A stretch of 64,000 nt of DNA from Deltaproteobacteria bacterium (GCA_016933215.1 JAFGBH010000079.1:7318-71317); one strand, 5' to 3'. Counted from the stretch's first letter, positions 36,624 to 63,616 are shown. A program made the numbers and translations. The notes: generated from the letters alone by a model not told the origin.

Positions 36624-36716
36624 ATCCCGACTCGTCGGGATTAAGGAAGATTTTATTTTTTATTCGCTCGCTAACCCCGCTGCAAGCAACGGGGAATGCG
36701 CTCGCTGTTCAGTTCA
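36624..36716. repeat. Family-2 intergenic repeat, copy a (two hairpins)
   Basis: About 93 nt that align over most positions with 46051-46142. Contains ATCCCGA-CTCG-TCGGGAT and CCCCGC-TGCAAGCA-ACGGGG hairpins. Confidence 0.8.
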
Positions 36717-36821
36717 AAACAAGAAATCGGGTTTGTGAAGTCCGAAAACTTGAAGCTTCCAAAAGATTTTAAAAGGGTATATAAGAAAGGCCGCAATTTG
36801 TAAACATATAAGAGGACTGAA

Positions 36822-38610: not shown

Positions 38611-38640
38611 TTGACAGAATCATAACTCTGAACATATTTT
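38611..38640 (+). promoter_or_regulatory. Sigma70-like promoter of the gcv operon
   Basis: TTGACA-N17/18-(A)TATTTT, about 150 nt upstream of the gcvT ATG. Confidence 0.5.
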
Positions 38641-38789
38641 GACCGGGAGCGCACCTGCAAGACCCGCCTCGTAGGCGGGGTAAGGGGCGCAACATAAAAC
38701 AAACATATTCCTTACCGGGAGGCCCTGCCCTGTGGGCGGGGAGCTTCACTCCCTTTGTTCTATAACTTTACACAAGGCAGGAACGCTCT
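38641..38789 (+). promoter_or_regulatory. Structured GC-rich gcvT leader (glycine riboswitch not confirmed)
   Basis: Two CCGGGAG boxes, each followed by a GC hairpin (ACCCGCC-TCGTA-GGCGGGGT; CCCTGCCC-TGT-GGGCGGGG), plus GGGGCGCAA and CAAGGCAGGAAC elements. These only partly resemble the glycine aptamer consensus blocks. Confidence 0.3.
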
Positions 38790-43269: not shown

Positions 43270-43430
43270 TTGTATCGGCACATTTCATGTACAACCGATG
43301 GCAACGAGGCACATGAAACGGTTTGATTACCTTGCTCTTCCCAACCTCACAACTGTTTAATAAAATTTTTTGTAGACAAAATCAGTGCACCTTTCGTCAT
43401 ACGCTACAAGGATACGAAAGGAGTGGTATT

Positions 43431-45293: not shown

Positions 45294-45399
45294 ACAGAGA
45301 GGAATAATCTAAATATTATTGCCGGTACTTAGGATTTTGTTTGGAGAATCTGCGCATTCCTGATAGCATACCGGCAGATCCCATCGTGAGGAACGATCG

Positions 45400-45912: not shown

Positions 45913-46050
45913 GTTTCTGATAATTTGTATCGTGCTTTATATGGCAATGCGAATGGCAACAGAGCAGCAAACATTGAATCTCCGACTGTTTAGTAAGTTA
46001 GGATTTATTTTCTGTGTTTTCTGGCAGAAAATAAATTCGTTAACGCACTT

Positions 46051-46142
46051 ATCCCGATTGTCGGGATTAAGGAAACTGGTTATTTTATATTCGCTCGCTA
46101 ACCCCGCCGCAAGCAGCGGGGAATGCGCTCACTATTCAATTC
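46051..46142. repeat. Family-2 intergenic repeat, copy b
   Basis: Collinear with 36624-36716 (ATCCCGATTGTCGGGATTAAGGAA...ATTCGCTCGCTAACCCCGCCGCAAGCAGCGGGGAATGCGCTC). It ends about 20 nt before the PilZ-2 start. Confidence 0.8.
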
Positions 46143-46164
46143 AATTCACGCGAGGGAACGGCAG

Positions 46165-49538: not shown

Positions 49539-49880
49539 ATGAAACGTAAATATTATAAAGTGCCCGATCAGGTAATGCTTGACCTGCCCGGCGCAAAAGA
49601 TATCAGTTTTCGCGTCATTATAGGTCAGGAAGACGGCGCACCGAACTTTACCATGCTCCTGATCGAGATTGCACCGGGCGGAAACGGGCCGGACCATACA
49701 CACCCCTGGGAAGAGGTAATATATGTAAAAAAGGGTATCGGCCAGATTAAATCGGGCGATGAAAGAAGGCCCATCGGTCCGGGCACCGCCGTTTTCCTTG
49801 CGCCCGGCGAACCGCACCAGTATTCCAACATAGGCAGCGAACCGCTCGAATTTCTCTGCATCATACCCCACAGAGCCTGA
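49539..49880 (+). CDS. Cupin domain protein
   Basis: 113 aa with GPDHTHPWEEVIYV...G...PGEPHQY two-motif cupin pattern. Confidence 0.7.
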   Translation: MKRKYYKVPDQVMLDLPGAKDISFRVIIGQEDGAPNFTMLLIEIAPGGNGPDHTHPWEEVIYVKKGIGQIKSGDERRPIGPGTAVFLAPGEPHQYSNIGSEPLEFLCIIPHRA

Positions 49881-49895: not shown

Positions 49896-50354
49896 TGTAG
49901 CTTCCCGATTTATCGGCGTATTTCCCGTGTCATTGCGAGTCCCGATGAAATCCCGATTTATCGGGAAGCAATCCTGTTTTTATCCTTGGTGCCTTAGTGC
50001 CTTTGTCACTTTGTGCCTTAATCATTGTAGAGATTGCCGCGTCGTTTCACTCCTCGCAATGACCCCGTTATTTTGTAGCTGCCCGATTTGTCGGGCGTTT
50101 TTCTTCATGCTCCGATATTCTCGGGGCGGGCTTCGTAAAACAAACTTCCTTTTGCCGATAAATCGGCGGGCTACATAATCCCTCTGTGCCTAATTCTTGC
50201 TTAATGAGATTGCCGCGTCCCGATTCCATCGGGCCTCGCAATGACCCCATTATTTTGCGGGCTACATAATCCCTTTGTGCCTCTGTCCCTCTGTGCCTTT
50301 GTCCCTTACCCCTTGTAGACAAAACCGCAAGCCCTTTCGTCACAGTCAATAAGG
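49896..50354. repeat. Composite intergenic repeat cluster 1 (modules H, V, O; ends in a TTGTAGACAAAA...CCTTTCGTCA motif)
   Basis: H (CCCGAT-hairpin) at 49896-49925, 50074-50103, 50152-50181 and 50257-50272. V (GTCATTGCGAG...GCAATC) at 49929-49974, 50018-50063 and 50201-50245. Period-8 O arrays at 49984-50017 and 50271-50305. Confidence 0.9.
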
Positions 50355-50357
50355 CTC

Positions 50358-50386
50358 TTGACCGTGGTGCCCCACGCTACCATAAT
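50358..50386 (+). promoter_or_regulatory. Sigma70-like promoter of the RND operon
   Basis: TTGACC-N17-CATAAT, about 105 nt upstream of the adaptor gene ATG. Confidence 0.5.
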
Positions 50387-50490
50387 TACATGAAAACGGT
50401 TGCTGTTAACTGAAAAATGCCTTACATTAACCGATCAGGAATGAATATGCATTTCGATATACCACATTAAACATTCGAGAGACATCGACG

Positions 50491-51660
50491 ATGAAGAAAC
50501 AACTGATCTGGTCCTTGATGCTGATCGGACTCGTTCTGGCCGGCTGGCAGATATATCATAGGTCCGGACTTTTCAATAAACAGACTCCACAGGCGATGAA
50601 CCCATCCATCGCCGTTGAAGTACAACCTATTGTCACCACGGTTATTCGAGAAGTGGAGGTCTTTACAGGCACTCTTCTGCCCGAGTCACAGTTTACCGTG
50701 GCGCCGAGGATCTCGGGTCGACTGGAGAAGCTTCTTGTCAATATCGGCGACGAGGTCAAACAGGGCCAGCTGATCGCCGTTCTCAATGATGACGAATTCG
50801 CCCAAGCGGTGGATCAGGCCAGGGCGGAACTCGATGTGGCCCGTGCGAATATCGAGGAAAATCGAAGCACCCTCGATCTGGCACGCCGTGAATTTGAGCG
50901 TGCCGAATCCCTGCGTGAAAAGAAAATCGTCTCCGTGGCAGAGCTCGACGCTGCCGAGTCTCAATACAAAACAGCCCTTGCCAGGCAAAAGGTGGCTGTG
51001 GCACAGGTTGCACAGAAGGAGGCAGAGCTGAAGACAAATGAGGTCCGGCTTGCCTACACTCGTATCAAGGCGTCATGGGAAAACGGAATCGAATCGCGCG
51101 TCGTGGGTGAGCGCTTCGTCGACGAAGGGGGTATGCTGACGGCAAACTCGCCCATCGTATCGATCATCGATATCAGCTGTCTTAGGGCCGTGATTCACGT
51201 CATCGAGACGGATTACCCCCGGGTGAAAGTGGGCCAGCGGGCGATTGTCACCACCGATGCCTTTCCGGGCCGTGTTTTCGAAGGCTCGATCGCCAGAATA
51301 GCCCCCCTTTTAAAAGAAGCGGCCCGACAGGCCCGCGTTGAAATTGACATCCCCAACCCTGAACGTCTGCTCAAGCCGGGCATGTTCGTCCGTGTTGAAA
51401 TCGAGTTTGACCGCCACGACAACGCTACGGTCATACCCGTCGATTCACTGGTCAAAAACAACGGCAACTGGGGTATCTTCATAGCAGACACGGAAGCCAT
51501 GCGGGCAAAATATGTCAGGGTAACCCCGGGTATCGTGAGCGGCACCATGGTCGAGATAGTCGAACCGCAGATTTCGGGCCTCGTGGTAACCGTGGGGCAG
51601 CACCTCCTCGAGAATGGTTCTCCCCTTTCACTGCCGGAAACAGTCCGGGAACCATCGTAA
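50491..51660 (+). CDS. RND efflux periplasmic adaptor (HlyD/MFP family)
   Basis: N-terminal TM, a lipoyl-like segment GRLEKLLVNIGDEVKQGQLIAVL, a coiled-coil hairpin and beta-barrel blocks. Confidence 0.85.
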   Translation: MKKQLIWSLMLIGLVLAGWQIYHRSGLFNKQTPQAMNPSIAVEVQPIVTTVIREVEVFTGTLLPESQFTVAPRISGRLEKLLVNIGDEVKQGQLIAVLNDDEFAQAVDQARAELDVARANIEENRSTLDLARREFERAESLREKKIVSVAELDAAESQYKTALARQKVAVAQVAQKEAELKTNEVRLAYTRIKASWENGIESRVVGERFVDEGGMLTANSPIVSIIDISCLRAVIHVIETDYPRVKVGQRAIVTTDAFPGRVFEGSIARIAPLLKEAARQARVEIDIPNPERLLKPGMFVRVEIEFDRHDNATVIPVDSLVKNNGNWGIFIADTEAMRAKYVRVTPGIVSGTMVEIVEPQISGLVVTVGQHLLENGSPLSLPETVREPS

Positions 51661-51719
51661 CAGGATGGGCAATTCCATGATCCAACACGAAATCCTTTAC
51701 ACATGCAGGGCAGCCTGAG

Positions 51720-54700
51720 ATGAACCTTTCCCGAGCCGCCGTTCACCGTCCTGTTTTTACCATCATGGTAATCCTGATTGTCTTGATTCTCGGCGGTGTG
51801 TCCCTCTTCCGCCTCCCCATAGACCTCATGCCCGATATCACCTACCCCACCCTGACCATTCGAAGCAATTATGAAAACGCCAGCCCCGAGGAAATCGAAG
51901 AGCTGGTGACCCGTCCCATCGAAGAGGCCATGAGTGCCGTACCCGGCGTAGAGAGCGTCTATTCCACCTCGGCAGAAGGCGTCAGCAACGTCCGTGTCAC
52001 CTTTAGCTGGGGAACCGACCTTGACACGGCGTCGAACGATATTCGCGACCGCCTCGATCGTATCATTTCCCGCCTCCCCGATGACACCGAACGGCCGACC
52101 CTTTTCAAGTTCGATATCGCCAATTTTCCCGTTCTGATCTTCGGGGCATCGGGCAACCTGACTCCTCTCCAGATGCGGAAATTAATCGATGACCAGGTCA
52201 AATACCGCATAGAACGGGTACCCGGTGTTGCGTCGCTCGATGTCTGGGGCGGGTATGAACGGGAGATACAGGTAAATCTGGATGCCGCCAGGATCAAGGC
52301 CATGGGCCTTCCCCTGGATCTCATTCTCTCTCGTATCAAAGAGGGTAACCTCAACCTCCCCGCCGGCACTATCGACCGGGGAAACCTTGAGGTTACCATG
52401 CGCACGTCGGGACAGTACAGCAATCTCGACCAGCTTGCCGACACCGTCATAATAATTCGCGACGGCGCCTCCATAAAACTCCGCGACATTGCCCGCATCG
52501 ATAATACCTGGAAAAAGATATCGCGGATCATCTGGGTAAACGGAAAGCCCGGGGTACGCCTGGGCGTGACAAAACAATCGGGATCCAATACCGTCGATGT
52601 GGCGAAGAAGGTCCTGGAAGAAGTGAGAGTGATCAACCGTGATATACCGCAGATACATATCACCCCGATTATCGATACATCGGATTACATCCAGAATTCC
52701 ATTACGAACGTGGGGACCATGGCGATCTACGGCGGGATTCTGGCTATTCTCGTTCTCCTTTTCTTCCTCAGGAATCTTGTCAGCACCCTGATAATCGCAA
52801 CAGCGATACCAATATCGATTATTGCCACCTTTGCCCTTATGTATTTCGGAGGACTCACCCTTAATATCATGACCCTTGGAGGACTTGCCCTCGGCATCGG
52901 CATGCTGGTCGATAATGCCATCGTGGTTCTGGAAAATATCTACCGGCACCGGGAATCGGGCGAGGCTCCCGAAGATGCCACCATCAAGGGAAGCAGCGAA
53001 GTGACATCAGCGATTATCGCCAGCACGCTCACCACTCTGGCGGTCTTTCTCCCCCTCGTATTTATTCGGGGAATGTCGGGGATCATGTTCAAACAGCTCG
53101 CCATGGTGGTCAGTTTTGCTCTTCTTTGTGCCCTTATGGTGGCAATCACCCTTATTCCCATGATGTCCGCAAAGCTCCTCCGCGTGGGAGTCCACAACTC
53201 GGGTGCATCACCAATGGACAAACTCTACCGTCTCAGCAGCCGTTTTTTCACCGGGATGGAAGACCGGTATAAGGAAATCCTCCATCTCGCCCTCGACCAT
53301 AGGAAACTGGTGGTCATCGGGACATTTGTGCTTCTCCTGGCAAGTCTGGCCCTCATTCCCCTTGTTGGCGTCGAGTTCATGCCGACCACCGACGAGGGTG
53401 AAGTCCGCATCGATGCTGAGATGAAAGTCGGAACACGGCTTGAGGTACTAACGGAAAAATTCAGGCTCATTGAAGAGCTTGTGAAACGTGAAGTCCCGGA
53501 AGCAAAAAACACGGTCACCAGCATTGGGGGATCGGGCTGGCGCTCCGGGGGCTCACATGCGGGAAGAATGCAGATCGCACTCAAACCCAGGGAGGAGCGG
53601 TCCCGTTCCAGTGAGCAGATTGCCGCCGATCTTCGCCCCATACTCAGCAATATTCCCGGAACCACCATCCGTACACGGGCCGGCCAGGGACTCTTTCTCC
53701 TGCGTATCTTTTCCGGCGGAGATACGGAACGGGTACAGATTGAAATCCGGGGATTCGATCTTGAAACCGCCGACGCCCTTGCGGAAAGCGTAAAAACTCT
53801 CGTCGAAAATGTTGATGGCGTCACCGATGCGCGGGTGAGCAGGGAATCGGGAAGCCCCGAAGAAATTGTCTTCGTGGACCGCCTGAAGGCCGCCGATCTG
53901 AAGCTCACCGTCTCACAGATCGCCAATATGCTTCAGACTGTCATCTCAGACACCAAAGCGGGCAGTTACCGGGAAGGGGGCGACGAATACGACATCCGCG
54001 TCAAGATTGAAGAGGCGGAAAAGCTCGGCCTCCGGGAAATCCTCGACCTGACCCTCGTCGGCTCTGAGGGTGAACCGGTGGTGCTCAGAAACGTGGTAAA
54101 AGTGGAGCCCAGAAGCGGCCCCGTAAGAATCGAGCGAAAGGATCAGGCACGTATACTCACCGTTTCGGCCAACACCAGCGGTCGTGACATGGGTTCGATA
54201 CTTGACGATATCCGCGAGCGGCTCAGGTCCATTCCCGTCCCCCGCGATTTCAGCATCGTCTTCGGCGGCGACTATGAAGAACAGCAAAAAGCCTTCCGGG
54301 AATTACTGCTCAGTTTCATACTGGCACTTATCCTCGTTTACATGGTCATGGCATCTCTCTACGAATCGCTCCGATACCCCCTGGTGGTCATGTTTTCCGT
54401 CCCCTTTGCCGCCATCGGTGTCATCCTGATTCTCTTTCTTTCCAATACTACCTTTAATGTCCAGTCCTATATCGGCTGCATCATGCTCGGCGGTATCGTG
54501 GTAAATAATGCCATCCTTCTGGTGGATCACATCAACCTTCTCCGACGCCGCGACAATCTCCCTCTCAGAGAGGCTATCGAAGAAGCGGGTCGCCGTCGAC
54601 TGAGACCGATTCTCATGACGGCAATGACGACGATCCTCGCCATGGTTCCGCTCGCAATCGGACTTGGTGAAGGTGGTGAAGTTCAGGCACCGCTGGCACG

Positions 54701-54797
54701 TGCCGTTATCGGAGGGCTCATCAGTTCCACCCTGATTACACTGCTCATGGTTCCCTCGGTGTATCTCATATTCGAAAAGGGACGGGAGAAAAAATGA
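51720..54797 (+). CDS. RND efflux permease (AcrB/HAE1-like)
   Basis: 1025 aa with 12-TM AcrB architecture. N-terminus AVHRPVFTIMVILIVLILGGVSLFRLPIDLMPDI. Confidence 0.95.
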   Translation: MNLSRAAVHRPVFTIMVILIVLILGGVSLFRLPIDLMPDITYPTLTIRSNYENASPEEIEELVTRPIEEAMSAVPGVESVYSTSAEGVSNVRVTFSWGTDLDTASNDIRDRLDRIISRLPDDTERPTLFKFDIANFPVLIFGASGNLTPLQMRKLIDDQVKYRIERVPGVASLDVWGGYEREIQVNLDAARIKAMGLPLDLILSRIKEGNLNLPAGTIDRGNLEVTMRTSGQYSNLDQLADTVIIIRDGASIKLRDIARIDNTWKKISRIIWVNGKPGVRLGVTKQSGSNTVDVAKKVLEEVRVINRDIPQIHITPIIDTSDYIQNSITNVGTMAIYGGILAILVLLFFLRNLVSTLIIATAIPISIIATFALMYFGGLTLNIMTLGGLALGIGMLVDNAIVVLENIYRHRESGEAPEDATIKGSSEVTSAIIASTLTTLAVFLPLVFIRGMSGIMFKQLAMVVSFALLCALMVAITLIPMMSAKLLRVGVHNSGASPMDKLYRLSSRFFTGMEDRYKEILHLALDHRKLVVIGTFVLLLASLALIPLVGVEFMPTTDEGEVRIDAEMKVGTRLEVLTEKFRLIEELVKREVPEAKNTVTSIGGSGWRSGGSHAGRMQIALKPREERSRSSEQIAADLRPILSNIPGTTIRTRAGQGLFLLRIFSGGDTERVQIEIRGFDLETADALAESVKTLVENVDGVTDARVSRESGSPEEIVFVDRLKAADLKLTVSQIANMLQTVISDTKAGSYREGGDEYDIRVKIEEAEKLGLREILDLTLVGSEGEPVVLRNVVKVEPRSGPVRIERKDQARILTVSANTSGRDMGSILDDIRERLRSIPVPRDFSIVFGGDYEEQQKAFRELLLSFILALILVYMVMASLYESLRYPLVVMFSVPFAAIGVILILFLSNTTFNVQSYIGCIMLGGIVVNNAILLVDHINLLRRRDNLPLREAIEEAGRRRLRPILMTAMTTILAMVPLAIGLGEGGEVQAPLARAVIGGLISSTLITLLMVPSVYLIFEKGREKK

Positions 54798-56446
54798 AAG
54801 GACCGGGTCCCTCAATCATGGAATTGAAGAAGATATCGAAACATCATACGAAACAATTCATGATTCTCTTCTTCGGGGTCTTCTGGCTTTTCGCAGGATC
54901 CTGCGCAGCCCCGCAGCAAAGGGAGATAGGCGAATATATCGGTCCCCCGAAACCTGCTGTCTTGGCGCCAGAGATGGAATCGCCCGAAGGAATAGCAAAA
55001 ATTGCCGAGACGCAAAAAACCGTTATTACGAAAGGCCCCCTGGAGATAACGACCGGGGATGCCATACTTATGGCGTTGGAGAATAATCGCGCCCTTCGAA
55101 TCGAAAAGCTGAGTCCCGAGATATACCGAGCCGGAGAAGAGAAGGAACGGGCCCTCTTTGATCCCGTTCTCACCGGCACCTACTCCCGGTTTCGCAATAA
55201 AACAGATACCGACCTCCCGGCCATCGGAGACAGTCTTGAAAAAGAAGTCGATACGGGACTGGGGCTTTCCGGGCGTATTCCCACGGGCACCGATGTTGCG
55301 CTCGGGATCTCGACGGAAGAGACATGGTCCGACGTCTCCCCGGACGATCTTTACGAATCACGCCTCGGCCTCAGTGTGACACAGGCCCTCTTGAGGGGTG
55401 GCGGCATAAAGTACAACCTGGCCAGGCTCCGTCAGGCGAGACTGGACACGCGCGCATCGCAGTATGAGCTGCGCGGTTTTGCCGAAACCCTCGTGGCACA
55501 GGTTGAGGAAACATACTGGGATTATGCACTCACCGGACGGCAGATCGAAATCTTTCAGGAATCACTGAAGCTGGCTGAAAAGCAGAGAAGCGAAACGGAA
55601 GAAATGATCACGATCGGTTCCCTGGCCGAATCGGAGATTACCGCCGCAGAGGCCGAAATCGCCCTCAGACGTGAAGGCCTCATCAATGCACGAAGCACCC
55701 TCGAAAAGACGCGCCTGCAGTTGCTGCGATTACTGAACCCCCCGGGCGAAAACCTCTGGTGCCGTACACTTGTCATTCTGGACCAGCCCGTTGCACCCGA
55801 CGTCATTCTGGATGACGTGGAGGACCATGTGGGCGTTGCCATGCGGATGAGACCCGACCTGAACCAGGCACGGCTTCAGGTGCTTCGGGGTGATCTCGAA
55901 ATTGTCACAACGAAAAACGGCGTCCTTCCCAAGCTGGACTTCTTCATAAACCTGGGCAAAACGGGATATGCCTCGTCATTCAACAGTGCCATCAACGATA
56001 TAAACGGCGATTCCTATGATATTCTGGCGGGGATCAACCTTGCATATCCATTCCTGAACCGTGATGCCAAAGCCAGTTACCGACAGTCCTTAATCAGCCG
56101 GAAACAGGCTGACGAATCAGTCGAAAATATGGCCCAGCTTGTCCAGGTGGATGTCAGGTCGGCCTATATCGAAGTCAACCGCACCAGGGAACAGATCGCG
56201 GCCACCACTGCCACCCGCGCACTCCAGGAGGAAAAGACGCGGATCGAAATGGAAAAATTTCGTGTGGGCAAATCGACGACACTTCTCGTGGCCCAGGCCC
56301 AACGTGACCTTCTTGCAAGCCGCATCGCAGAAACGGAGGTCACTGCCAATTATCTTAAATCCCTCGTTGAACTCTACCGTCTTGAAGGGTCTCTTCTCGA
56401 ACGGCGGGGCATCGAGGCCCCCGGCCACGAAACGGTCAGCTTCTGA
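54794..56446 (+). CDS. Outer membrane efflux protein (TolC/NodT-like, probable lipoprotein)
   Basis: Lipobox-like FAGSC and two OEP repeats. ATGA overlap with the RND permease. Confidence 0.85.
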   Translation: MKGPGPSIMELKKISKHHTKQFMILFFGVFWLFAGSCAAPQQREIGEYIGPPKPAVLAPEMESPEGIAKIAETQKTVITKGPLEITTGDAILMALENNRALRIEKLSPEIYRAGEEKERALFDPVLTGTYSRFRNKTDTDLPAIGDSLEKEVDTGLGLSGRIPTGTDVALGISTEETWSDVSPDDLYESRLGLSVTQALLRGGGIKYNLARLRQARLDTRASQYELRGFAETLVAQVEETYWDYALTGRQIEIFQESLKLAEKQRSETEEMITIGSLAESEITAAEAEIALRREGLINARSTLEKTRLQLLRLLNPPGENLWCRTLVILDQPVAPDVILDDVEDHVGVAMRMRPDLNQARLQVLRGDLEIVTTKNGVLPKLDFFINLGKTGYASSFNSAINDINGDSYDILAGINLAYPFLNRDAKASYRQSLISRKQADESVENMAQLVQVDVRSAYIEVNRTREQIAATTATRALQEEKTRIEMEKFRVGKSTTLLVAQAQRDLLASRIAETEVTANYLKSLVELYRLEGSLLERRGIEAPGHETVSF

Positions 56447-56461
56447 TTTTTGACGCTTCGT

Positions 56462-56804
56462 GTCATTGCGAACTCAGTGAAGCAATCTCGTTTTTTAATG
56501 TAGTTGTCCGATTCATCGGGCGTTTTTGCTTTTGCCCATAAATGGGCGGGCTACAGAATCACTTTGTGCCTCTGTCCCTCTGTCCCTTTGTGCCTTTGCT
56601 ACTTTGTGCCTTAATCGTTGTAGAGATTGCCGCGTCGCTTCGCTCCTCGCAATGACTGGGGGGCTGATTGTCGCGTCGTTTCCCGCCATGCTTCGCTCGC
56701 GGCTGCGACTCACCCTTGCAATGACCCCTGTCTTTGCCGATAAATCGGCGGGCTACATAATCACTTTGTCCCTCTGTGCCTTTGCTACTTTGTGCCTCTG
56801 TGCC
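56462..56804. repeat. Composite intergenic repeat cluster 2 (V+, then a ~306-bp unit H+ H- O V- Vlong- H- O)
   Basis: Modules at 56462-56487 (V+), 56499-56527 (H+), 56532-56560 (H-), 56561-56610 (O), 56611-56656 (V-), 56666-56725 (V long), 56734-56762 (H-) and 56763-56804 (O). Confidence 0.9.
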
Positions 56805-56921
56805 TGATATTTCCCCTTGACTTTTTTAGCGCGTACCATTAGTGTCGCTCACATATTGCAATGAGAGAAACCTCCTGCCATTTCTGCTGTTGGGAGGTCT
56901 TTTATATAGAATCAGGATGTT

Positions 56922-57584
56922 ATGCTTAAACGTATAAAATACTCTGTTATCACCTCAAATATCTTCCTCGCTTTTCTCTACCGGTTTATTCGACTCTATT
57001 CCTCCACCTTTCGCCTCACCGTCGAAAACGAAGGAAAATGGATCAATCATATCGAGAATGGGGGAAGAGTGCTGCTCTGCACCTGGCACCAGCAATTCTT
57101 CTCGGCAATCCATCACTTCAAGAACTACCGAAAATACAAACCCGGTCTCATGATCAGCAGAAGTTTCGACGGTGATCTCATTTCGGGCATCGCAAACCGA
57201 ACGGGGTGGTATACCATGCGCGGTTCCTCCTCGAAAGGCGGCCGTAAGGCCCTGGGCGGAATGATCGAAAAATTAACTGAAACGGGGCTTGCCGCCCACA
57301 TCGTTGATGGTCCCCGGGGACCTGCTGGTGTGGTAAAGGCCGGCGCAATCCGCCTTGCATCAGCCGCCAATGCAGTCATTGTGCCCTTTTATACCTCTAC
57401 CGAAAATGCGTGGTATTTTAAAAGCTGGGACCGGTTCATGCTTCCCAAGCCATTTGCCAGGGTGACGCTGCGATTCGGCGACATGATCCCCTGCCCTGCT
57501 TCGGAAAATGATGATGATTTCGAGCATCATCGAAGTTCTCTGGAGCAGCTTATGCTCCCCGAAATTCGTCTCTCCGCCGCATAG
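56922..57584 (+). CDS. DUF374 (lysophospholipid acyltransferase-like) protein
   Basis: ...LLCTWHQQFF...ISRSFDGDLISGIANRTGWYTMRGSSSKGG...DGPRGPAGVVKAG..., typical of DUF374. Confidence 0.75.
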   Translation: MLKRIKYSVITSNIFLAFLYRFIRLYSSTFRLTVENEGKWINHIENGGRVLLCTWHQQFFSAIHHFKNYRKYKPGLMISRSFDGDLISGIANRTGWYTMRGSSSKGGRKALGGMIEKLTETGLAAHIVDGPRGPAGVVKAGAIRLASAANAVIVPFYTSTENAWYFKSWDRFMLPKPFARVTLRFGDMIPCPASENDDDFEHHRSSLEQLMLPEIRLSAA

Positions 57585-57600
57585 CGGGGACTTAATCCGT

Positions 57601-57898
57601 TGTAGTTGCCCGATTCATCGGGCTCTTTTCGTCTTGCCGATAAATCGGCAGGCTACAGAATCCCTTTGTGCCTCTGTGCCTTTGTTACTTTGTGCCTTTA
57701 TCTTTAACGAGATTGCCGCGTCGTTGCACTCCTCGCAATGACTGGAGGGCTGATTGCCGCGTCGCAGACCGCCACGCTTCGCTCGCGGCTTCGGCTCACC
57801 CTCGCAATGACCAACATCTTTGCCGATAAATCGGCAGGCTACAGAATCCCTTTGTGCCTCTGTGCCTCAGTGCCTCTATGCCTCTGTATCTCTGTGCC
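57601..57898. repeat. Composite intergenic repeat cluster 3 (collinear copy of the 56499-56804 unit)
   Basis: Same module order: H+ 57601-57629, H- 57634-57662, O 57663-57696, V- 57697-57742, V long 57752-57811, H- 57820-57848, O 57849-57898. Confidence 0.9.
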
Positions 57899-57920
57899 TA
57901 TCTTTTGAAACATTTCCCGA

Positions 57921-57950
57921 TTGACAAACAAAAAATCCCGGTGTTATGAA
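57921..57950 (+). promoter_or_regulatory. Sigma70-like promoter of the abfD-like/ligase operon
   Basis: TTGACA-N18-TATGAA, about 55 nt upstream of the ATG at 58006. Confidence 0.45.
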
Positions 57951-58005
57951 ATCGGAATCACCGTTCTATCAAATCATGTCATAAGAGGGGGGGGAATCGC
58001 AGTCC

Positions 58006-59442
58006 ATGGGTATCAAAACGAGTGCAGAATATCTTGAAAGCCTGAAGAAACTGAAGCCAACGGTCTACATCGCCGGTGAAAAGGTCGAGGATGTCTCGAC
58101 GAACAAATTCTTCCAGCCTTCAATCAAAGAGGTCTGTAAATTCTACGACTGGACCAACGATCCGGAAAAACGTGACGACTTTGTCTACTGGTCGTCCCTC
58201 ATCAACGAAGAGGTCAGTTTCTGGACCCACATCAGGGAGACCAAGGAAGAATTCGTCGACCTCCTCAAAATCATGAAAAAGAACAACGCCCGGAATTTCT
58301 GCTCCTTCTGCATGGGGATCGGCCCCTGCGTCTTCTGGGCAACCACCTATGATATCGATCAGGCAAAGGGCACCAACTACCAGGAACGGCTCAGGGAATT
58401 CTTCAAGAAGCTGCAGCGGGAAGACCTCCGGTTCTGCCTCGGGGTCATGGACCCGAAGGGCGACCGTTCGCTGAAACCGAGCGAGCAGGCCGACCCTGAT
58501 CTCCACCTTCGCATCGTCGAGAGAAAAGCCGACGGAATCGTCGTGAACGGCGCCAAGATGCACACCTCAACCGCACCCTTGGCCCACTATATCTTCTGCG
58601 CCCCCGGCGGGTTCCTGACCGAAGAGGACAAGGACTATGCCGTCTCCTTCGCCATCCCCATCGACACAAAGGGAATTACCTTTATCGCCCGGCCGTCGCC
58701 CTGCCCCCTGAATGCAACCCAGATGTCAAATCCCGCCAGCATCCGCCACAACATGGTCGAATGCCTCACCGTTTTTGACAACGTTTTCGTCCCCTGGGAA
58801 AATGTCTTCATGGCCGGGGAATGGGAATTCACCGACCGCTTCATCCACTATTTCTCATCCTACGGCAGGCCTGTCAAGGCCACCTGCATATCGGCCCGAA
58901 CCGACATGATCGCCGGCGCGGCGGCACTGATTGCCGATTACAACGGCGTTTCCAAGGCCAGTCATATCAGGAGCAAGATCAACGACATGGTAATCAGCTC
59001 GGAAATCGGATGGGGGTGCGTGATGGGTGCCGTGGCAAATTCCGTCGATCATCCGAGCGGCATTCCAATCCCCGATATATCCATGAGCAATGCCGGGCTC
59101 TATCATACGAGGCTCCGTTTCGTGGAGTTTCTGGGAATGCTGATGGAGATCGCCGGCGGCGTGGTCACCACCATGCCGATCGAGGCGGATTTCAGAAACG
59201 AGGAGACGCGGCCCCTCATCGAGAAATACTTCAAGGCAAAAAGCGACATCCCCACCGAGGATCGGTTGAAACTTCTCTATCTTATTCAGGAGCTCACGGC
59301 ATCACGATTCGGCGGCTATTTCCTCTCCAGCGCCATCTGCGCCGTCGGAACGCCGGAGACCAACAGGCTCGAAGTCCTCAGAAACTACGATCTCCTGGCC
59401 CAGATCGAAAACGTGAAAGACATATGTGACATCAAAACCTGA
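58006..59442 (+). CDS. 4-hydroxybutyryl-CoA dehydratase/vinylacetyl-CoA isomerase family protein (HpaB fold)
   Basis: Collinear with remembered Clostridium AbfD blocks: TTYDIDQAKGTNY, MDPKGDRSLKPSEQADPDLHLRIVERKADGIVVNGAKMHTS and EDKDYAVSFAIP. Confidence 0.8.
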   Translation: MGIKTSAEYLESLKKLKPTVYIAGEKVEDVSTNKFFQPSIKEVCKFYDWTNDPEKRDDFVYWSSLINEEVSFWTHIRETKEEFVDLLKIMKKNNARNFCSFCMGIGPCVFWATTYDIDQAKGTNYQERLREFFKKLQREDLRFCLGVMDPKGDRSLKPSEQADPDLHLRIVERKADGIVVNGAKMHTSTAPLAHYIFCAPGGFLTEEDKDYAVSFAIPIDTKGITFIARPSPCPLNATQMSNPASIRHNMVECLTVFDNVFVPWENVFMAGEWEFTDRFIHYFSSYGRPVKATCISARTDMIAGAAALIADYNGVSKASHIRSKINDMVISSEIGWGCVMGAVANSVDHPSGIPIPDISMSNAGLYHTRLRFVEFLGMLMEIAGGVVTTMPIEADFRNEETRPLIEKYFKAKSDIPTEDRLKLLYLIQELTASRFGGYFLSSAICAVGTPETNRLEVLRNYDLLAQIENVKDICDIKT

Positions 59443-59473
59443 CCCCGTTTACAAGTCACGGAAGGAGGGAACC

Positions 59474-61087
59474 ATGGCTGCACAAAACCCGATGATCGAA
59501 CTCTTACAGACCGAAGAAACACTCGGCGAAATGATCGAAAACAGGACCCGTAATCTCCCTGACAAACCGGCCTTGATTTTCTACGACGATGAGGTTACCT
59601 ACCGGGAACTCAACGAAAAGGTCGACGGTCTCGCCACGGCCCTCCTCGATATGGGCATCACCGCCGAAGACCGCATCGCCATCATCATGCCCACGCGGCC
59701 CGAATTTATCTATCTCTGGCTTGCCGCCTCGAAGATCGGCGCCTCCGTGGTAGGCCTCAATTTCCGCTACCAGCAGGATGAAGTCGTCTATATGGTCAAC
59801 AATTCCCGGCCCTCTGTCCTCGTTTGCATCAACGAATTCGCCTTCACCAATTACAACACCTTTCTCTCGGATATCAGGGAGAGGATTCCCTCGGTGAAAC
59901 AGTTCGTCTTTCTGGGAAAGACAGAATTCCCCGGTGCTATCGATTTCAATGAACTTCTCGCCACGAAACCCGATGACGCGAAGCTCTCAGAGGCGAAAAA
60001 AGAGATGAAAGGCGAGAGCGACAACTTCATCATCTACACCGCGGGCACGACGGGGAAACCGAAGGGCGCCGTCCTGACTCAAAAGAGTATCATGGCAATG
60101 ATGAAGCTCTGGACGAAAAACCTGGAGCTTTCGCCGGATGACCGAATCCTCTGCATTCTGCCGCTCAACCATGTGGGCGGCGGCACGATCATGGCCCTGT
60201 CGTCGCTCGCAAGCGGCATCACCCTCGTTTTACACGATATGTTTATGCCCGACCAGTTAGTGGACATAATCCGGGAGCATAAGGTCACGGTCTTCGGCGC
60301 CGTTCCCACCGTTTTTGAGATCCTCTTTGCCGCCCGTCGCGATATCGCCGCCGGCATGCTTCCAAGTATCAGACTAACGGCCTACGGCGGCTCTCCGGCA
60401 ACGCCGGAAGTCCTGAAGGCGATGCGAGAGAAATTCGACGCCCCGGTCATGGCCTGCTACGGCTCCACCGAAGTGAGCGGTTTTATCACCTACACGAAAA
60501 GTGATGATCCCTTCGAAAAGACGATGACGGCAGGGCGGGTGCCCGAAGGCGTCGAGGCGAAGATTGTCGCACCCGATACGCGGGAAGAACTGCCCAAAGG
60601 AGAAATCGGCGAGATTGCCTTCAGGTCCGACATGATTTTCGACCGTTATCTCGATATGCCCGAGGAGACGAAAAATGCCTTTGACGACGAGGGCTGGTTT
60701 TACATGGGCGATCTCGGCTACTTTGACGAGGACGGCTTTCTCGTCATCGCGGGGAGAACCAAGGAGATGTACATCACCGGCGGATTCAATGTCTATCCGA
60801 AGGAGATCGAGGACTGTTTAGCCGCCCATCCCGATGTAATCATGGCGGCCGTTGTCGGAGCACCCCACTCTATTATGGGTGAAACGGGCATCGCCTTTGT
60901 GGTTCTGAACCCGACATCGGAAGTTACCGGAGAGGATCTCAGAGAATTCTGCAGGCCGAAACTGGCCGATTACAAGGTGCCCTCGAGGGTATTCCTGGAA
61001 ACCTCGCTCCCCATGACCACCGTGGGAAAGATACAGAAAACGGTCCTCCAGGAAACCGCCCGCAAACGCCTAAGCGGCAAAAAATAA
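59474..61087 (+). CDS. AMP-forming acyl-CoA synthetase/ligase
   Basis: IIYTAGTTGKPKGAVL AMP-binding motif, YGSTE, and GWFYMGDLGYFDEDGFLVIAGRTKE. Start MAAQNP after GGAAGGAGGG. Confidence 0.9.
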   Translation: MAAQNPMIELLQTEETLGEMIENRTRNLPDKPALIFYDDEVTYRELNEKVDGLATALLDMGITAEDRIAIIMPTRPEFIYLWLAASKIGASVVGLNFRYQQDEVVYMVNNSRPSVLVCINEFAFTNYNTFLSDIRERIPSVKQFVFLGKTEFPGAIDFNELLATKPDDAKLSEAKKEMKGESDNFIIYTAGTTGKPKGAVLTQKSIMAMMKLWTKNLELSPDDRILCILPLNHVGGGTIMALSSLASGITLVLHDMFMPDQLVDIIREHKVTVFGAVPTVFEILFAARRDIAAGMLPSIRLTAYGGSPATPEVLKAMREKFDAPVMACYGSTEVSGFITYTKSDDPFEKTMTAGRVPEGVEAKIVAPDTREELPKGEIGEIAFRSDMIFDRYLDMPEETKNAFDDEGWFYMGDLGYFDEDGFLVIAGRTKEMYITGGFNVYPKEIEDCLAAHPDVIMAAVVGAPHSIMGETGIAFVVLNPTSEVTGEDLREFCRPKLADYKVPSRVFLETSLPMTTVGKIQKTVLQETARKRLSGKK

Positions 61088-61117
61088 GGAGTTTCATTGC
61101 AAATATTGTTTGGAAAT

Positions 61118-61135
61118 ACCATACAATTGTATGGT
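61118..61135. repeat. Perfect 18-bp palindrome ACCATACAATTGTATGGT
   Basis: Read directly; 31 nt after the ligase stop. A partial CATACAA repeat follows. Confidence 0.9.
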
Positions 61136-61162
61136 TTAAGCATACAAATTTAAATCTTATCC

Positions 61163-61365
61163 GTCATTGCGAACAAATTCCCCGTCATTGCGAGCGCAGC
61201 GAAGCAATCTTTATCTTATATGTACGGGATTGCCGCGTCGTTTCCCGCCACGCTTCGCTCGCGGCTTCGACTCACCCTCGCAATGACCCCGTTTTACTTA
61301 ATCCTCTAATCCTTAATCCATGCCCTTTATTCCTCTTTACCTTTGCTACTCGGTGCCTCTGTGCC
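61163..61365. repeat. Composite intergenic repeat cluster 4a (V+ V+ Vlong- O)
   Basis: V+ tandem at 61163-61209, V long at 61228-61287, O array at 61340-61365. Confidence 0.85.
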
Positions 61366-61412
61366 GAAGGTTTCCGTCCCGAAAGGATATTCCAGCACTG
61401 GCGGATTTTTTC

Positions 61413-61441
61413 TTGATAAACGAAATTAATAAGTTTATATT
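61413..61441 (+). promoter_or_regulatory. Sigma70-like promoter (TTGATA-N17-TATATT)
   Basis: Good spacing and a good -10 box. It lies between repeat modules, about 195 nt upstream of the radical SAM ATG. Confidence 0.45.
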
Positions 61442-61458
61442 TCCCTTAAATATTTACC

Positions 61459-61503
61459 CCCCGTCGGACCAGCCGCAAGGCCTCTGACGGGGTTTTGTTT
61501 TTT
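61459..61503 (+). terminator. Strong terminator-type hairpin with GNRA tetraloop
   Basis: CCCCGTC-GGA..GCC-GCAA-GGC..TCT-GACGGGG followed by TTTTGTTTTTT. It starts about 15 nt after the predicted -10. Confidence 0.6.
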
Positions 61504-61507
61504 ATAC

Positions 61508-61549
61508 CCTTTGTGCCTTTGTTACTTTGTTACTTTGTGCCTTCGTGCC
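61508..61549. repeat. Period-8 O array (cluster 4b)
   Basis: CCCTTTGTGCCTTTGTTACTTTGTTACTTTGTGCCTTCGTGCC. Confidence 0.85.
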
Positions 61550-61635
61550 TTATTCCTCAACGCCCCTTGCCTTCCCCCCATTATTCTGATACTCACCCCC
61601 TGACTTTTATATGAAGAAAAGGACACCATTACACC

Positions 61636-62517
61636 ATGAGATACGAGGGAAACATCTACCGGCCCTTCAGCGAGGCGAACAGTTATCTTCTCCAGTGCAC
61701 CATCGGCTGCTCGCACAACCGGTGCACCTTCTGCGGCATGTACAAGGACAGGAAATTCCGCATCCGCACCCTCGATGAGATAAAAACCGACATTCGAATG
61801 GCAAAGGAATACTACGGCGATGTCGAAAAGGTATTCCTCTGTGACGGCGACGCCATCGCCATCGAAACGGACATCCTTTTAGAGATACTGCAGGAACTCA
61901 GAGACGCCTTCCCCTCACTCCGCCATGTGGGCTCCTATGTCGGCCCCCAGAGCACCCTGGGAAAGAGCATGGCGGAACTCACCGCCCTTCGCGAGGCCGG
62001 CCTCAAAAAGGCCTATCTCGGCGTGGAAACCGGCGACGATCTCCTCTTGAAAGAAATACGAAAGGGTGTCACTGCTGATGAGATGCTCCAGGCCGGCAGA
62101 AATTTGGTCGCTGCCGGCATGAATCTCTCATCCATGGTCCTTCTCGGCCTCACCGGAAGAGATACAAAACGTTCACGGGAACACGCCATCGCCACGGCAG
62201 AGATCACCAACAAAATGAAACCGCACTACCTCGCCGCCCTCACCGTCACACCTGTCCCGAATACGATCCTTTTCAATCAGGTTCAAAAGGGGGAATTTGA
62301 AGTCATGGACGCCTTTGAAACCCTGGAAGAGATGAAGGTCCTCTTTGAGAACCTCACGATCGACAACCTGAAATTCGTGGGGATTCACGCATCCAACTAC
62401 CTGCCCGTAAACGGAACCCTCCAGCGGGATAAAGCACAGATGCTGGCAACGATAAACTCGGCCCTGGAAAAGCGCGACCGAAGCAAACTAAGAGACGAGC
62501 ACATGCGGGGACTTTAA
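61636..62517 (+). CDS. Radical SAM domain protein, subfamily unresolved
   Basis: YRPFSEANSYLLQCTIGCSHNRCTFCGMY Cys motif with CX4CX2C spacing, a TIM-barrel-like remainder (FLCDGDAIAI, YLGVETGDD), 293 aa. Confidence 0.8.
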   Translation: MRYEGNIYRPFSEANSYLLQCTIGCSHNRCTFCGMYKDRKFRIRTLDEIKTDIRMAKEYYGDVEKVFLCDGDAIAIETDILLEILQELRDAFPSLRHVGSYVGPQSTLGKSMAELTALREAGLKKAYLGVETGDDLLLKEIRKGVTADEMLQAGRNLVAAGMNLSSMVLLGLTGRDTKRSREHAIATAEITNKMKPHYLAALTVTPVPNTILFNQVQKGEFEVMDAFETLEEMKVLFENLTIDNLKFVGIHASNYLPVNGTLQRDKAQMLATINSALEKRDRSKLRDEHMRGL

Positions 62518-62526
62518 ACGCTCCTC

Positions 62527-62658
62527 GTCATTGCGAGTACCCCGATCAATATCGGGGGACGCGACAATCTCGCCTTTGTCATTGCGAGGAGCAACGCGAC
62601 GCGGCAATCTCTTCTTTTTTGTCATTCCGGAATCTGCGAAAGCGAATATCCGGAATCC
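62527..62658. repeat. Composite intergenic repeat cluster 5 (V+ with hairpin insert, V+ short, W hairpin)
   Basis: V+ at 62527-62569 and 62578-62609. W is GTCATTCCGGAATCTGCGAAAGCGAATATCCGGAATCC at 62621-62658. Confidence 0.85.
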
Positions 62659-62881
62659 AGATCCCCCCTTAATCCTGTTTTATCCCTTGACACCTCCCCT
62701 TCCCTTCTGCTAACTACCTAATCGCTTTATCAAAAAAGGGGACGTTAAAGGCTCTATTAACAATATTTCTACTCGCTCGCTGGAAAGTAAAAAACCTATG
62801 ACTGAAGCTCACTTTATCCCCGTTTCTATATATCAGAGGCGGGATTTTCCCCTTATGGTCCCCGAATGGTCTGAGCTTCAA

Positions 62882-63616
62882 ATGAAAAAATCGAAAACAA
62901 AATATCCCCTCCCCATTCGTGAATGGTCCGAGGATGACCGCCCCAGAGAAAAACTACTCAAATATGGCGAACACACGTTAAGCAATGCAGAGTTGCTTGC
63001 CATCCTGATCCGCACGGGCACCCCCGGCCGTAGTGCCGTGGATATCGGCAGAGAGTTGCTTCATAAATACAAATCACTCCGAAATATGAGCGGCATTGAT
63101 ATCGCCGAATTCAAGGAAATCTCTGGCCTAAAAAATGCGAAGATCGCCCAGATCAAAGCTGCTATTGAACTTGGCAGAAGAATGCTAAGCGAAGAAAAGG
63201 TGCTCAAAGGCTCCATAAAGAAATCGGCAGATGTGGCAAACTATCTCATGCCCCTCATGCGAGACCTGAAAAAAGAACGATTTCTTCTCCTTCTTCTCGA
63301 CCGGCGAAACACCGTCACCGATGTCATCAACGTAGACTACGGTACGGTTGATAGAGCGAATCCATATATCAGGGAGATTCTTCAAAAAACAATTAAGGGC
63401 AACGCAGCCTCCATTATTGTTGCCCACAATCATCCATCAGGATCGGTAAAACCGAGTAACGATGACAAAGCCTTCACAAAAAGCCTTATGATGGCATCAA
63501 GGGCAACCGGCATCAGTTTTTTCGACCATATTATTATCGGCGATAATTGCTACTTCAGTTTTGCCGACGAAGGACTTATTAAGGAGTATGAAACGCTGGC
63601 TATCAAAGAATTATAA
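62882..63616 (+). CDS. radC: RadC-like JAB/MPN domain protein
   Basis: RPREKLLKYGEHTLSNAELLAILIRTG (HhH region) and AHNHPSGSVKPSNDD JAMM motif. The start MKKSKTKYP is preferred over the 28-codon extension. Confidence 0.85.
   Translation: MKKSKTKYPLPIREWSEDDRPREKLLKYGEHTLSNAELLAILIRTGTPGRSAVDIGRELLHKYKSLRNMSGIDIAEFKEISGLKNAKIAQIKAAIELGRRMLSEEKVLKGSIKKSADVANYLMPLMRDLKKERFLLLLLDRRNTVTDVINVDYGTVDRANPYIREILQKTIKGNAASIIVAHNHPSGSVKPSNDDKAFTKSLMMASRATGISFFDHIIIGDNCYFSFADEGLIKEYETLAIKEL

Follow-up and report, generated by a model that had tools for sequence, protein, structure and literature searches.

Between 49.9 and 62.7 kb of a 64,000-nucleotide (nt) stretch of DNA from an uncultured Deltaproteobacterium (GCA_016933215.1, JAFGBH010000079.1:7318-71317; the whole stretch is hereafter called the window), a cupin gene, a resistance-nodulation-division (RND) efflux operon, a DUF374 acyltransferase gene, an HpaB-type oxygenase and ligase operon, a radical SAM gene, and a RadC gene follow one another on the + strand, and repeats occupy each gap between these units (Table 1). 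A preliminary description of this DNA had assigned the repeats to one set of four recurring modules: a hairpin (H), an element found in both orientations (V), a period-8 array (O), and a further element (W). Our analysis resolves them instead into three independent classes with different wider distributions: GTAG-tagged repetitive extragenic palindromes (REPs), (C/T)GTC-tagged hairpins, and octamer arrays. We consider it probable that the five gaps are mosaics in which these three kinds of small repeats pile up between co-directional operons, similar to bacterial interspersed mosaic elements (BIMEs) and Neisseria intergenic mosaic elements (NIMEs).

Direct reading and unsupervised repeat finding both placed repeat modules at the expected coordinates in all five operon boundaries, as had been claimed; the latter recovered families D1 to D6 and D8 and inverted pairs I1, I2, I4, I12, and I20 to I23. 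When up to one mismatch was allowed, GTCATTGCGAG matched 14 times in the window, 13 of them inside 49.9-62.6 kb (shuffled sequences gave 1.1 ± 0.9 matches, and 0 of 100 reached 14), and the H- core CCGATWWATCGGCRGGCTAC, with up to three mismatches, matched six times, all within the region (0.02 in shuffles). Junctions within operons (51660/51720, 54794/54797, and 59426/59442) carry no repeats. From 36.8 kb onward, every gene of the window points in the same direction. Some details of the preliminary description had to be revised: gaps 1 to 5 measure 610, 475, 421, 548, and 280 nt rather than 350 to 600 bp; W, presented as a recurring module, has a single copy in the window, at 62620-62660; and the matches at 7547 and 36514, taken for a solo remnant in the left 49 kb, fall within coding sequence and appear to be fortuitous.

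Since independent contigs carry the same DNA, the clusters are not an assembly artefact: the NCBI metagenome-assembled genome (MAG) contig L001 matches the window with 4 mismatches and 0 gaps over 8.1 kb, and two short Logan contigs break exactly within repeats, at 56627 and 57663. Rfam gave no match in the gaps, either at gathering thresholds or at E values up to 10, and a literature search for the literal repeat sequences returned primer coincidences only. A GC-skew switch near 48 kb was considered and dropped, the skew being weak and without a clear switch point.

Table 1. Genes and repeat modules at the five operon boundaries (window coordinates; Ha and Hb, the two H arm types; TRF, Tandem Repeats Finder).
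Feature	Position	Strand	Evidence
Cupin	49539-49880	+	
HlyD-AcrB-OEP (RND efflux operon)	50491-56446	+	
DUF374 acyltransferase	56922-57584	+	
HpaB-type oxygenase and AMP-dependent ligase	58006-61087	+	
Radical SAM	61636-62517	+	
RadC	62798-63616	+	
Ha arm, degenerate (TGTAGCTTCCCGATTTATCGGCG), 15 nt past cupin stop	49896-49918	+	
V+ with H-like hairpin interior (CCCGATTTATCGGG)	49928-49974	+	folding z -2.9
O octamer array, 4.6 copies	49984-50020	+	TRF
V- short	50031-50064	-	repeat finding (D5, I2)
Ha arm then T-run, terminator-like	50074-50102	+	folding z -4.2
Hb arm; + strand reads TTGCCGATAAATCGGCGGGCTACA (H- of the preliminary description)	50152-50175	-	
V- with inner hairpin (CCCGAT..ATCGGG)	50207-50246	-	repeat finding (I12)
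Truncated Hb arm (GCGGGCTACA on + strand)	50257-50266	-	
O array, 4.8 copies, 50 nt upstream of promoter-like site 50358-50386 (HlyD/AcrB/OEP operon)	50270-50307	+	
V+ short, opens composite V+ Ha+ Hb- (O) V-	56461-56488	+	
Ha arm then T-run, terminator-like	56499-56527	+	
Hb arm, stem variant CCCAT/ATGGG (compensatory change)	56532-56555	-	
O array, 6.4 copies; insertion within composite compared with L069	56562-56612	+	
V- short	56624-56657	-	repeat finding (I1)
V- long form	56666-56725	-	repeat finding (D6)
Hb arm	56734-56757	-	
O array, 11 nt upstream of -35-like TTGACT (56817-56822), DUF374 gene	56764-56805	+	promoter by eye; conserved in L047/L069
REPIN-like doublet: Ha+ 57601-57623, 10-nt spacer, Hb- 57634-57657; 17 nt past DUF374 stop	57601-57657	.	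z -4.9
O array	57663-57699	+	
V- short	57710-57743	-	
V- long form	57752-57811	-	repeat finding (D6)
Hb arm	57820-57843	-	
O array, 6.4 copies, 22 nt upstream of -35-like TTGACA (57922-57927), HpaB operon	57849-57899	+	
Truncated V head (61163-61173) then V+ short (61184-61210)	61162-61210	+	
V- long form	61227-61288	-	repeat finding (D6)
Degenerate 7-8-nt arrays (CTTAATC..., CTCTGTGCC)	61297-61372	+	TRF; repeat finding (D1)
O array, 5.5 copies, upstream of radical SAM gene	61508-61551	+	
V+ with strong inner hairpin (CCCCGAT CAAT ATCGGGG)	62526-62570	+	folding z -5.3
V+ short	62577-62610	+	
W: TGTC-tagged hairpin ATTCCGGAAT..ATCCGGAAT, tail CCAG; architecture as ssn-flanking elements in L275, L288	62620-62660	+	

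The H hairpin and a clade of short transposases

The H hairpin consists of GTAG, one base, a 7-bp stem, a TTYA loop, and the second half of the stem. Its arms are of two types, with a CCCGAT stem in Ha and a GCCGAT stem in Hb, and occur mostly as inverted doublets of unlike arms; the four Ha and five full Hb arms of the window all read (T)GTAG, 1 to 3 nt, stem, TTYA or TTTG loop, stem, and the hairpins fold far better than shuffled sequences (z from -4.2 to -4.9). Doublets with 10-nt spacers are found at 56499-56555 and 57601-57657, and one with a 55-nt spacer at 50074-50175; the same arrangement is seen in most of the 64 loci described below. The 10 H arms of the window all lie within 8 kb; a ~89% identical relative, CAYSHT01, has H on four contigs, and an Elusimicrobia MAG has it on ~27.

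To follow H beyond the window, the exact Hb 22-mer GCCGATAAATCGGCRGGCTACA was scanned in one genome per species (GTDB representatives). It was found at 64 loci, in MAGs titled as many phyla: Elusimicrobia (~27 loci in one MAG), Deltaproteobacteria, Syntrophaceae, Omnitrophota, Ignavibacteriae, Zixibacteria, Doudnabacteria, Kerfeldbacteria, and unclassified bacterium. In most loci, the 22-mer forms the right arm of an inverted doublet whose left arm is again GTAG followed by a hairpin, with a stem that differs by compensatory changes (CCCGAT/ATCGGG, CTCAAT/ATTGAG, CCCAAT/ATTGGG, or CCTGAT/ATCAGG). Across loci, 431 of 533 GTAG hairpins have a 1-nt linker and a TTTA, TTCA, or TTTG loop.

Two genes for REP-associated tyrosine transposases (RAYTs) lie within the 22-mer loci. 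The search for such a gene that had been proposed for this genome thus succeeded in other genomes with the same H sequence, not in the window. The RAYT gene of locus L060 (NF047646; PF01797) has an H+ arm on one side and the exact 22-mer on the other. Homologous proteins of ~137 amino acids (aa) make up a family, and several of them are named "REP element-mobilizing transposase RayT" in their source records. The flanks of RAYT homologues in 80 metagenomic loci nearly always contain a GTAG hairpin upstream and a hairpin followed by CTAC downstream; under a strict fixed geometry in which only the nearest GTAG was considered, a GTAG hairpin was scored upstream of 49 of 79 genes, downstream of 40 of 78, and on both sides of 29. 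Upstream of the gene, most arms are of the CCCAT/CCCGAT type, whereas downstream most are of the GCCGAT type, the same asymmetry as that of Ha and Hb in the window. At L072 and L124, the exact 22-mer is present at RAYT genes whose products are each 57 to 59% identical to the L060-based query.

Covariation was assessed in 107 GTAG 23-mers picked solely by their proximity to RAYT genes. We counted 140 compensatory cells, compared to 57.5 ± 6.6 in shuffles (0 of 500 reached the observed value) and 23 to 56 when the partner column was slid. Compensatory changes are also evident within the locus (CCCGAT/ATCGGG to CCCAAT/ATTGGG; GCCGAT to GCCCAT). A Deltaproteobacteria RAYT, P0130, was considered as the source organism's own and rejected, since it belongs to another assembly.

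On sequence grounds, H is a GTAG-tagged REP of the substrate type of this ~137-aa RAYT (HUH/Y1) clade. Because a RAYT gene sits between Ha-type and Hb-type arms elsewhere, the H doublet looks like a RAYT unit minus its gene, as in the model proposed for REP doublets forming hairpins (REPINs) (PMC3116915). Like the REP/REPIN-RAYT systems of Escherichia coli and Pseudomonas (PMC2817692, PMC3116915, and PMC3479197; GTAG superfamily, PMC3733652), H combines a GTAG tag with an imperfect palindrome whose stem covaries, forms inverted heterodimer doublets, is extragenic and located just downstream of genes, and accompanies a transposase gene flanked by both arm types. It differs in that the RAYTs of the H clade are short and come from uncultured lineages, in MAGs titled Kerfeldbacteria, Elusimicrobia, Omnitrophota, Deltaproteobacteria, and others. 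The usual description of REPINs is one of lineage specificity and vertical inheritance, whereas the H 22-mer is identical across phyla, even at the diverged RAYT genes of L072 and L124. The conserved ATTTAT/ATTCAT loop region and the T-run of one arm in this lineage also distinguish H from REP/REPIN-RAYT systems.

This T-run follows Ha only in this lineage; H doublets outside it lack a T-run. Terminator-like predictions land on three Ha arms of the window, and Ha with its T-run is probably an intrinsic terminator positioned just after stop codons.

Larger structures involving H were also observed. H-type REP arms in L019, L036, L037, L075, L095, L116, and L120 contain a second palindrome within the loop (e.g., CCTGTCCCGAGCGAAGTCGAGGGA), a recurrent nesting of hairpin in hairpin. 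In the Elusimicrobia MAG PL23a_bin.39 (L008, L014, L017, L023, L026, L030, L044, L052, L056, L059, L062, and L063), a single Hb arm lies inside a longer inverted repeat (GGTTCAACCGTTTTAATTT...AAATTAAAACGGTTGAACC), and in the MAG MEGAHIT-group-1.427 (L011, L013, L018, L021, L027, L031, and L065), the doublet lies inside a ~150-nt repeat with termini CCCAAATCCTCGG/CCGAGGATTTGGG and a TTGACA box. The REP is thus embedded in larger lineage-specific repeats.

Hairpins tagged by (C/T)GTC

The consensus of 172 unique V copies reads YGTC ATTGC GAG (variable hairpin) CGWR GCAAT C Y. In 146 of the 172 copies (85%), GTC is preceded by T or C, and GCAAT C is followed by T or C in 161; the search did not impose the CG at positions -10/-9 or the C after GCAAT, yet both are conserved. 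V has CTC/CCC in place of a CCA tail. Within the window, it comes in a short form (~28 to 34 nt), a hairpin-carrying form (40 to 47 nt), and a long form (~60 nt).

The V pattern was found in >120 viral contigs, often in multiple copies and mostly co-oriented between genes: among gene-scale neighbour pairs, 46 were ++ or --, compared to 12 that were +- or -+. In contrast, the exact H 22-mer, present in MAGs of many phyla, occurs in no viral contig, and phage carriage of H was dropped as an explanation. Small open reading frames (ORFs) between V pairs in viral contigs, considered as candidates for the enzyme of V, turned out to encode ordinary phage proteins.

The single W reads TGTC ATTCCGGAAT...ATCCGGAAT CCAG, ending in AAT CCAG. 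Its nested-hairpin architecture is shared with copies in the Syntrophaceae MAG L050 and with elements of L275 and L288 that flank ssn-like genes. In L053, a 104-aa GIY-YIG gene lies between two W-like copies and adjoins H and V modules, and in L153, a GIY-YIG gene is flanked by GTCAT hairpins. GTCAT hairpins also flank 18 of 18 close viral homologues, 17 of them on both sides, and some of these hairpins have the nested architecture of W.

REPs have been sorted into GTAG- and CGTC-tagged superfamilies by Di Nocera et al. (PMC3733652). In the latter, the tag is often TGTC, the stem starts with A-T, T-A, and the tail is approximately CCA; it includes dRS3 of Neisseria, and no transposase was known for it at that time (PMC3733652). 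The Neisseria NTS (CGTCATTCCCGCGMAVGCGGGAATCYRG) and hairpins of the related Ssn-related motif (SRM) flank small GIY-YIG genes, ssn (PMC11893778, 2025). The SsnA nuclease binds and cuts NTS only when it is single-stranded; binding depends critically on the C that follows the palindrome, and cutting on the three bases that precede it (PMC11893778).

V and W belong with the (C/T)GTC-tagged hairpins, the kind represented by CGTC-REPs, NTS-dRS3, and Ssn-related motifs. As in the Neisseria NTS/dRS3 and SRM-SsnA systems (PMC11893778) and in CGTC REPs (PMC3733652), (C/T)GTC precedes a palindrome starting with AT and a C follows it. W shares, in addition, the CCAG tail; W-type copies flank ssn-like genes elsewhere, and clustering with other repeats around variable genes is a common feature. 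Unlike NTS and SRM, which have an 8- to 9-bp stem and a 4- to 5-nt loop, V has a 5-bp basal stem (ATTGC/GCAAT), a GAG/CGWR internal loop, and a variable apical hairpin; it does not fit the SRM pattern, no V-flanked ssn gene was found in the loci examined, and it is abundant in viral contigs. V is best described as a divergent, very widespread subtype that is SRM-like by architecture and has a presumed cognate enzyme.

H and W match catalogued kinds (GTAG/CGTC REP superfamilies, PMC3733652; NTS/SRM-Ssn, PMC11893778), one of the outcomes that the preliminary description had listed as counting against it.

Two further cases involve V or a GIY-YIG gene. In L227, a V-/V+ pair (4709-4779) lies in frame in a 494-aa phage ORF (3846-5330, - strand; peptide ...PSARNDSPFVSLRGAEHRSNLV...), which recalls the in-frame palindromic elements of Rickettsia. 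In L012 (1016-1348, - strand), the hairpin flanking a GIY-YIG gene is of another sort and lacks the GTC tag (CACCCCATTAGATAACTTCGTATCTAACGGGGTGAA); the two may represent another nuclease/hairpin pair.

Octamer arrays and turnover of the clusters

The O unit is a YYYTGTGCC-like octamer repeated in tandem, always on the gene strand. TRF detected 11 distinct period-8 arrays in the window: nine in gaps 1 to 4, with 4.6 to 6.4 copies, and two very short ones outside, with 2 to 2.5 copies. The last O array of each of gaps 1 to 4 ends 11 to 50 nt before a -35-like box (boxes were read by eye; that of gap 1 was also found by a promoter scan), an arrangement conserved in L047, L069, and L022. Copy numbers at orthologous sites differ (5 compared to 15, and 7 compared to 9), and the array at 56562-56612 is an insertion within a block that lacks an array in relatives. 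The arrays expand and shrink in place. Other genomes in the set have many period 7-8 arrays with other unit sequences. Such arrays are ~3.7-fold denser near H than in all other DNA but no denser than in other noncoding DNA, and a specific link to REPs was dropped.

Short tandemly repeated repetitive (STRR) heptanucleotide arrays occur in heterocystous cyanobacteria, as reportedly described by Mazel et al. in 1990. Octa- and heptanucleotide arrays of Geobacter metallireducens have been proposed as sites of a global regulator (PMC2700814). O resembles both in having 4 to 15 copies of a 7- to 8-nt unit at many intergenic sites and differs from both in its YYYTGTGCC-like unit, its embedding in REP mosaics, and its constant location on the strand of the downstream gene.

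In relatives that are ~89% identical to the window (L047, L068, L069, and L271 to L273), the gene order GcvP ... ECH-3HCDH-TrmO-cupin/DUF374/HpaB-ligase is kept, and repeat clusters are located at the same two boundaries (cupin/DUF374 and DUF374/HpaB). The module maps of orthologous gaps differ between the window, L069, L271, L272, and L273. At the DUF374/HpaB boundary, the window has Ha+ Hb- O V- V- Hb- O, L069 has V- V- Hb- V+ Ha+ Hb- V- O, and L273 has the L069 arrangement plus one V-. Two sites of L069 share a 172-nt block, Hb- V+ Ha+ Hb- V-, with 90% identity that extends to the linkers, and the differences within its hairpins are compensatory. Linkers joining V and H are conserved (e.g., GCAATCTCGTTTTTTAATGTAG and CAATGACCNNTRTCTTTGCCGAT). 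This pattern indicates that a ~140- to 170-nt block (V+ H+ H- V-) is duplicated as a whole.

The largest difference, 6.5 kb, is the HlyD-AcrB-OEP operon, which is present in the window, where it is bounded by two clusters, and absent from five ~89% relatives, where the cupin and DUF374 genes are neighbours separated by a single 288- to 421-nt cluster. Its GC content is like that of its neighbours; the idea that it is compositionally foreign was therefore dropped, and insertion cannot be told from deletion. In L069, the ligase gene is followed after only 60 nt by a different gene, and synteny with the window ends there. As a likely side effect, the clusters would act as substrates or boundaries when entire operons are gained or lost. 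They may be recombination substrates, as had been suggested, which fits operon- and module-sized indels at clusters in relatives.

Several other features of the neighbourhood were recorded. Just right of the window, L001 (7885-11687) encodes a type I restriction-modification system (HsdM, HsdS) after RadC; this arrangement and the break in synteny beyond the ligase gene of L069 suggest variability at the right end of the window. In gap 4, 61413-61505 contains a promoter-like site (TTGATA, 17 nt, TATATT) followed ~20 nt later by a strong hairpin and a T-run (CCCCGTCGGACC...GACGGGG TTTTGTTTTTT); it has no Rfam match and could represent either a tiny transcription unit or the actual site of termination for the ligase operon. 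A 42-nt stretch (TTGTAGACAAAA...CCTTTCGTCA...) occurs at 43370-43411 and 50313-50354, upstream of two different operons; its copies are 71% identical and may represent a shared operator or promoter element. A second repeat family, at 36624-36717 and 46051-46144, comprises two hairpins, and its copies are 79% identical. In L068/L069, a copy lies elsewhere, between window positions 45327 and 45331, and the window copy at ~45980-46139 is missing; this family looks mobile, since copy positions differ between the window and L068/L069. The window also has a 119-nt intergenic element at 38631-38749, of which L068/L069 carry an 85% identical reverse copy at the equivalent of 47055/47075, where the window is empty.

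Origin and meaning of the mosaics

The reading of the gaps as mosaics agrees with the "REP/BIME-like" character first suggested for them. E. coli BIMEs and Neisseria NIMEs are likewise intergenic mosaics, located between co-directional or convergent genes, in which alternating REPs are interleaved with conserved short motifs; unlike them, the mosaics of the window mix two tag superfamilies (GTAG and YGTC) with conserved linkers and octamer arrays.

Several observations weigh against this reading. The 64-kb window contains neither a RAYT gene nor a GIY-YIG gene, and a search of 1.8 Mb of loci revealed no V-flanked ssn-like gene. The short forms of V are not predicted to fold significantly under standard parameters, and V does not match the published SRM pattern HGTCWYN(0-2)YYVSBRHN(0-5)WNVSBRGN(0-2)RNCYNB. 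W and the ssn-flanking elements of L053 do not match it either; because these L053 elements fail too, the pattern appears narrow. The source genome is not among the GTDB representatives with a 22-mer match, so that dispersal of H is documented only for the ~89% relative (four CAYSHT01 contigs) and otherwise implied by contig breaks in repeats, and the phylum labels of MAGs depend on binning by others. The proposed terminator, promoter-context, and recombination roles derive from sequence alone.

The same clusters could be host regulatory parts kept by selection and not selfish, with H and V as terminator or insulator hairpins and O as an upstream promoter element or protein-binding array. The Ha arms with T-runs 15 to 50 nt past stop codons, the position and strand of the last O array in four gaps, kept in L047, L069, and L022, and the proposal made for the G. 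metallireducens arrays (PMC2700814) are all consistent with such roles. However, the same H sequence is found in unrelated gene contexts across many phyla and flanks RAYT genes, its doublet has no T-run outside this lineage, V is common in viral contigs, module order and number vary at orthologous gaps of close relatives, and period 7-8 arrays are no denser beside REPs than in other noncoding DNA, all of which makes this explanation improbable. We regard as slightly less probable still that V+ and V- are terminal inverted repeats of a non-autonomous transposon, a MITE (miniature transposable element with inverted repeats), with H and O as cargo and a DDE-type transposase encoded elsewhere. V+...V- pairs with 11-nt perfect termini do enclose H and O, an architecture correctly recognized in the preliminary description; the V+ Ha+ Hb- V- block is found repeatedly as one unit whose linkers are conserved, and inverted termini around a short noncoding interior and folding into a long hairpin are features shared with MITEs. 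Direct reading of the flanks of V+...V- units nevertheless revealed no target-site duplication, and on this point the term "MITE-like" fails. V copies are tagged hairpins in their own right, with internal features that are conserved, and are also found alone, in same-orientation tandems, and co-oriented between phage genes, so that V is not a terminal inverted repeat of one element. H has a separate enzyme association with RAYT.

Cassette exchange, in which the clusters would be recombination sites, integron-like or similar to the minimal mobile elements of Neisseria, and hairpins would border swapped operon-sized cassettes, is the least probable of these explanations. It would account for the confinement of the 6.5-kb RND operon, bounded by two clusters, to the window, for the end of L069 synteny at the cluster after the AMP-binding gene, and for the co-orientation of genes from 36.8 kb onward. 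Yet no integrase or recombinase is found nearby, each "cassette" has its own promoter-like site, the RND operon does not differ from its neighbours in GC content, only one operon-sized indel was seen, and homologous recombination between repeats, or deletion, gives the same pattern.

We thus return to mosaics of independent repeats, for which the following mechanism can be proposed. By analogy with TnpA-REP of E. coli, which binds and cleaves REP as single-stranded DNA (PMC3479197), the H hairpin would be recognized on single-stranded DNA and cut next to GTAG by RAYT, while V and W would be recognized by an Ssn-like nuclease. Modules would build up where insertion is harmless and earlier hairpins offer targets. 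Blocks are copied whole, modules nest in each other's loops, and cluster turnover at fixed gene boundaries is rapid; hairpins nested within loops are seen both in the window's V copies and in the REPs of L019, L036, L075, L095, L116, and L120.

A more far-reaching version, which we consider rather unlikely though less so than the alternatives above, is that V, travelling on phages, is the recognition hairpin of a further clade of single-strand-specific nucleases (Ssn-like or other) and in this lineage has been fused with a RAYT-type REPIN into a ~140- to 170-nt chimera (V+ Ha+ Hb- V-) that is copied as a unit and marks the borders of operon gain and loss, with H being a RAYT/REP pair spread horizontally across uncultured phyla.

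Overall, the locus is an ordinary, though well-developed, case of known selfish hairpin repeats and short tandem arrays in an uncultured Deltaproteobacterium. This explains the oversized gaps and the spurious repeat ORFs (VIARSEATRQS and KAQRDRGTEAQ), here and in many other MAGs, and provides simple annotation rules: GTAG-N-stem-TTYA-stem for H and YGTC-ATTGCGAG...GCAATC for V. The clusters are sites of assembly breaks and of gene-content differences between close relatives. Uncultured anaerobes have hairpin repeats of both the RAYT/REP type and the Ssn/SRM-like type, and the mosaics of this lineage interleave the two. Of particular interest are the interleaving of GTAG and YGTC hairpins in one duplicating block, the extremely wide distribution of V, with clear conserved features and a presumed enzyme, and the presence of a near-identical REP with its RAYT clade across many phyla. 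If true, the horizontal spread of H with a nearly unchanged DNA site would contrast with the picture of vertical inheritance of REPINs.

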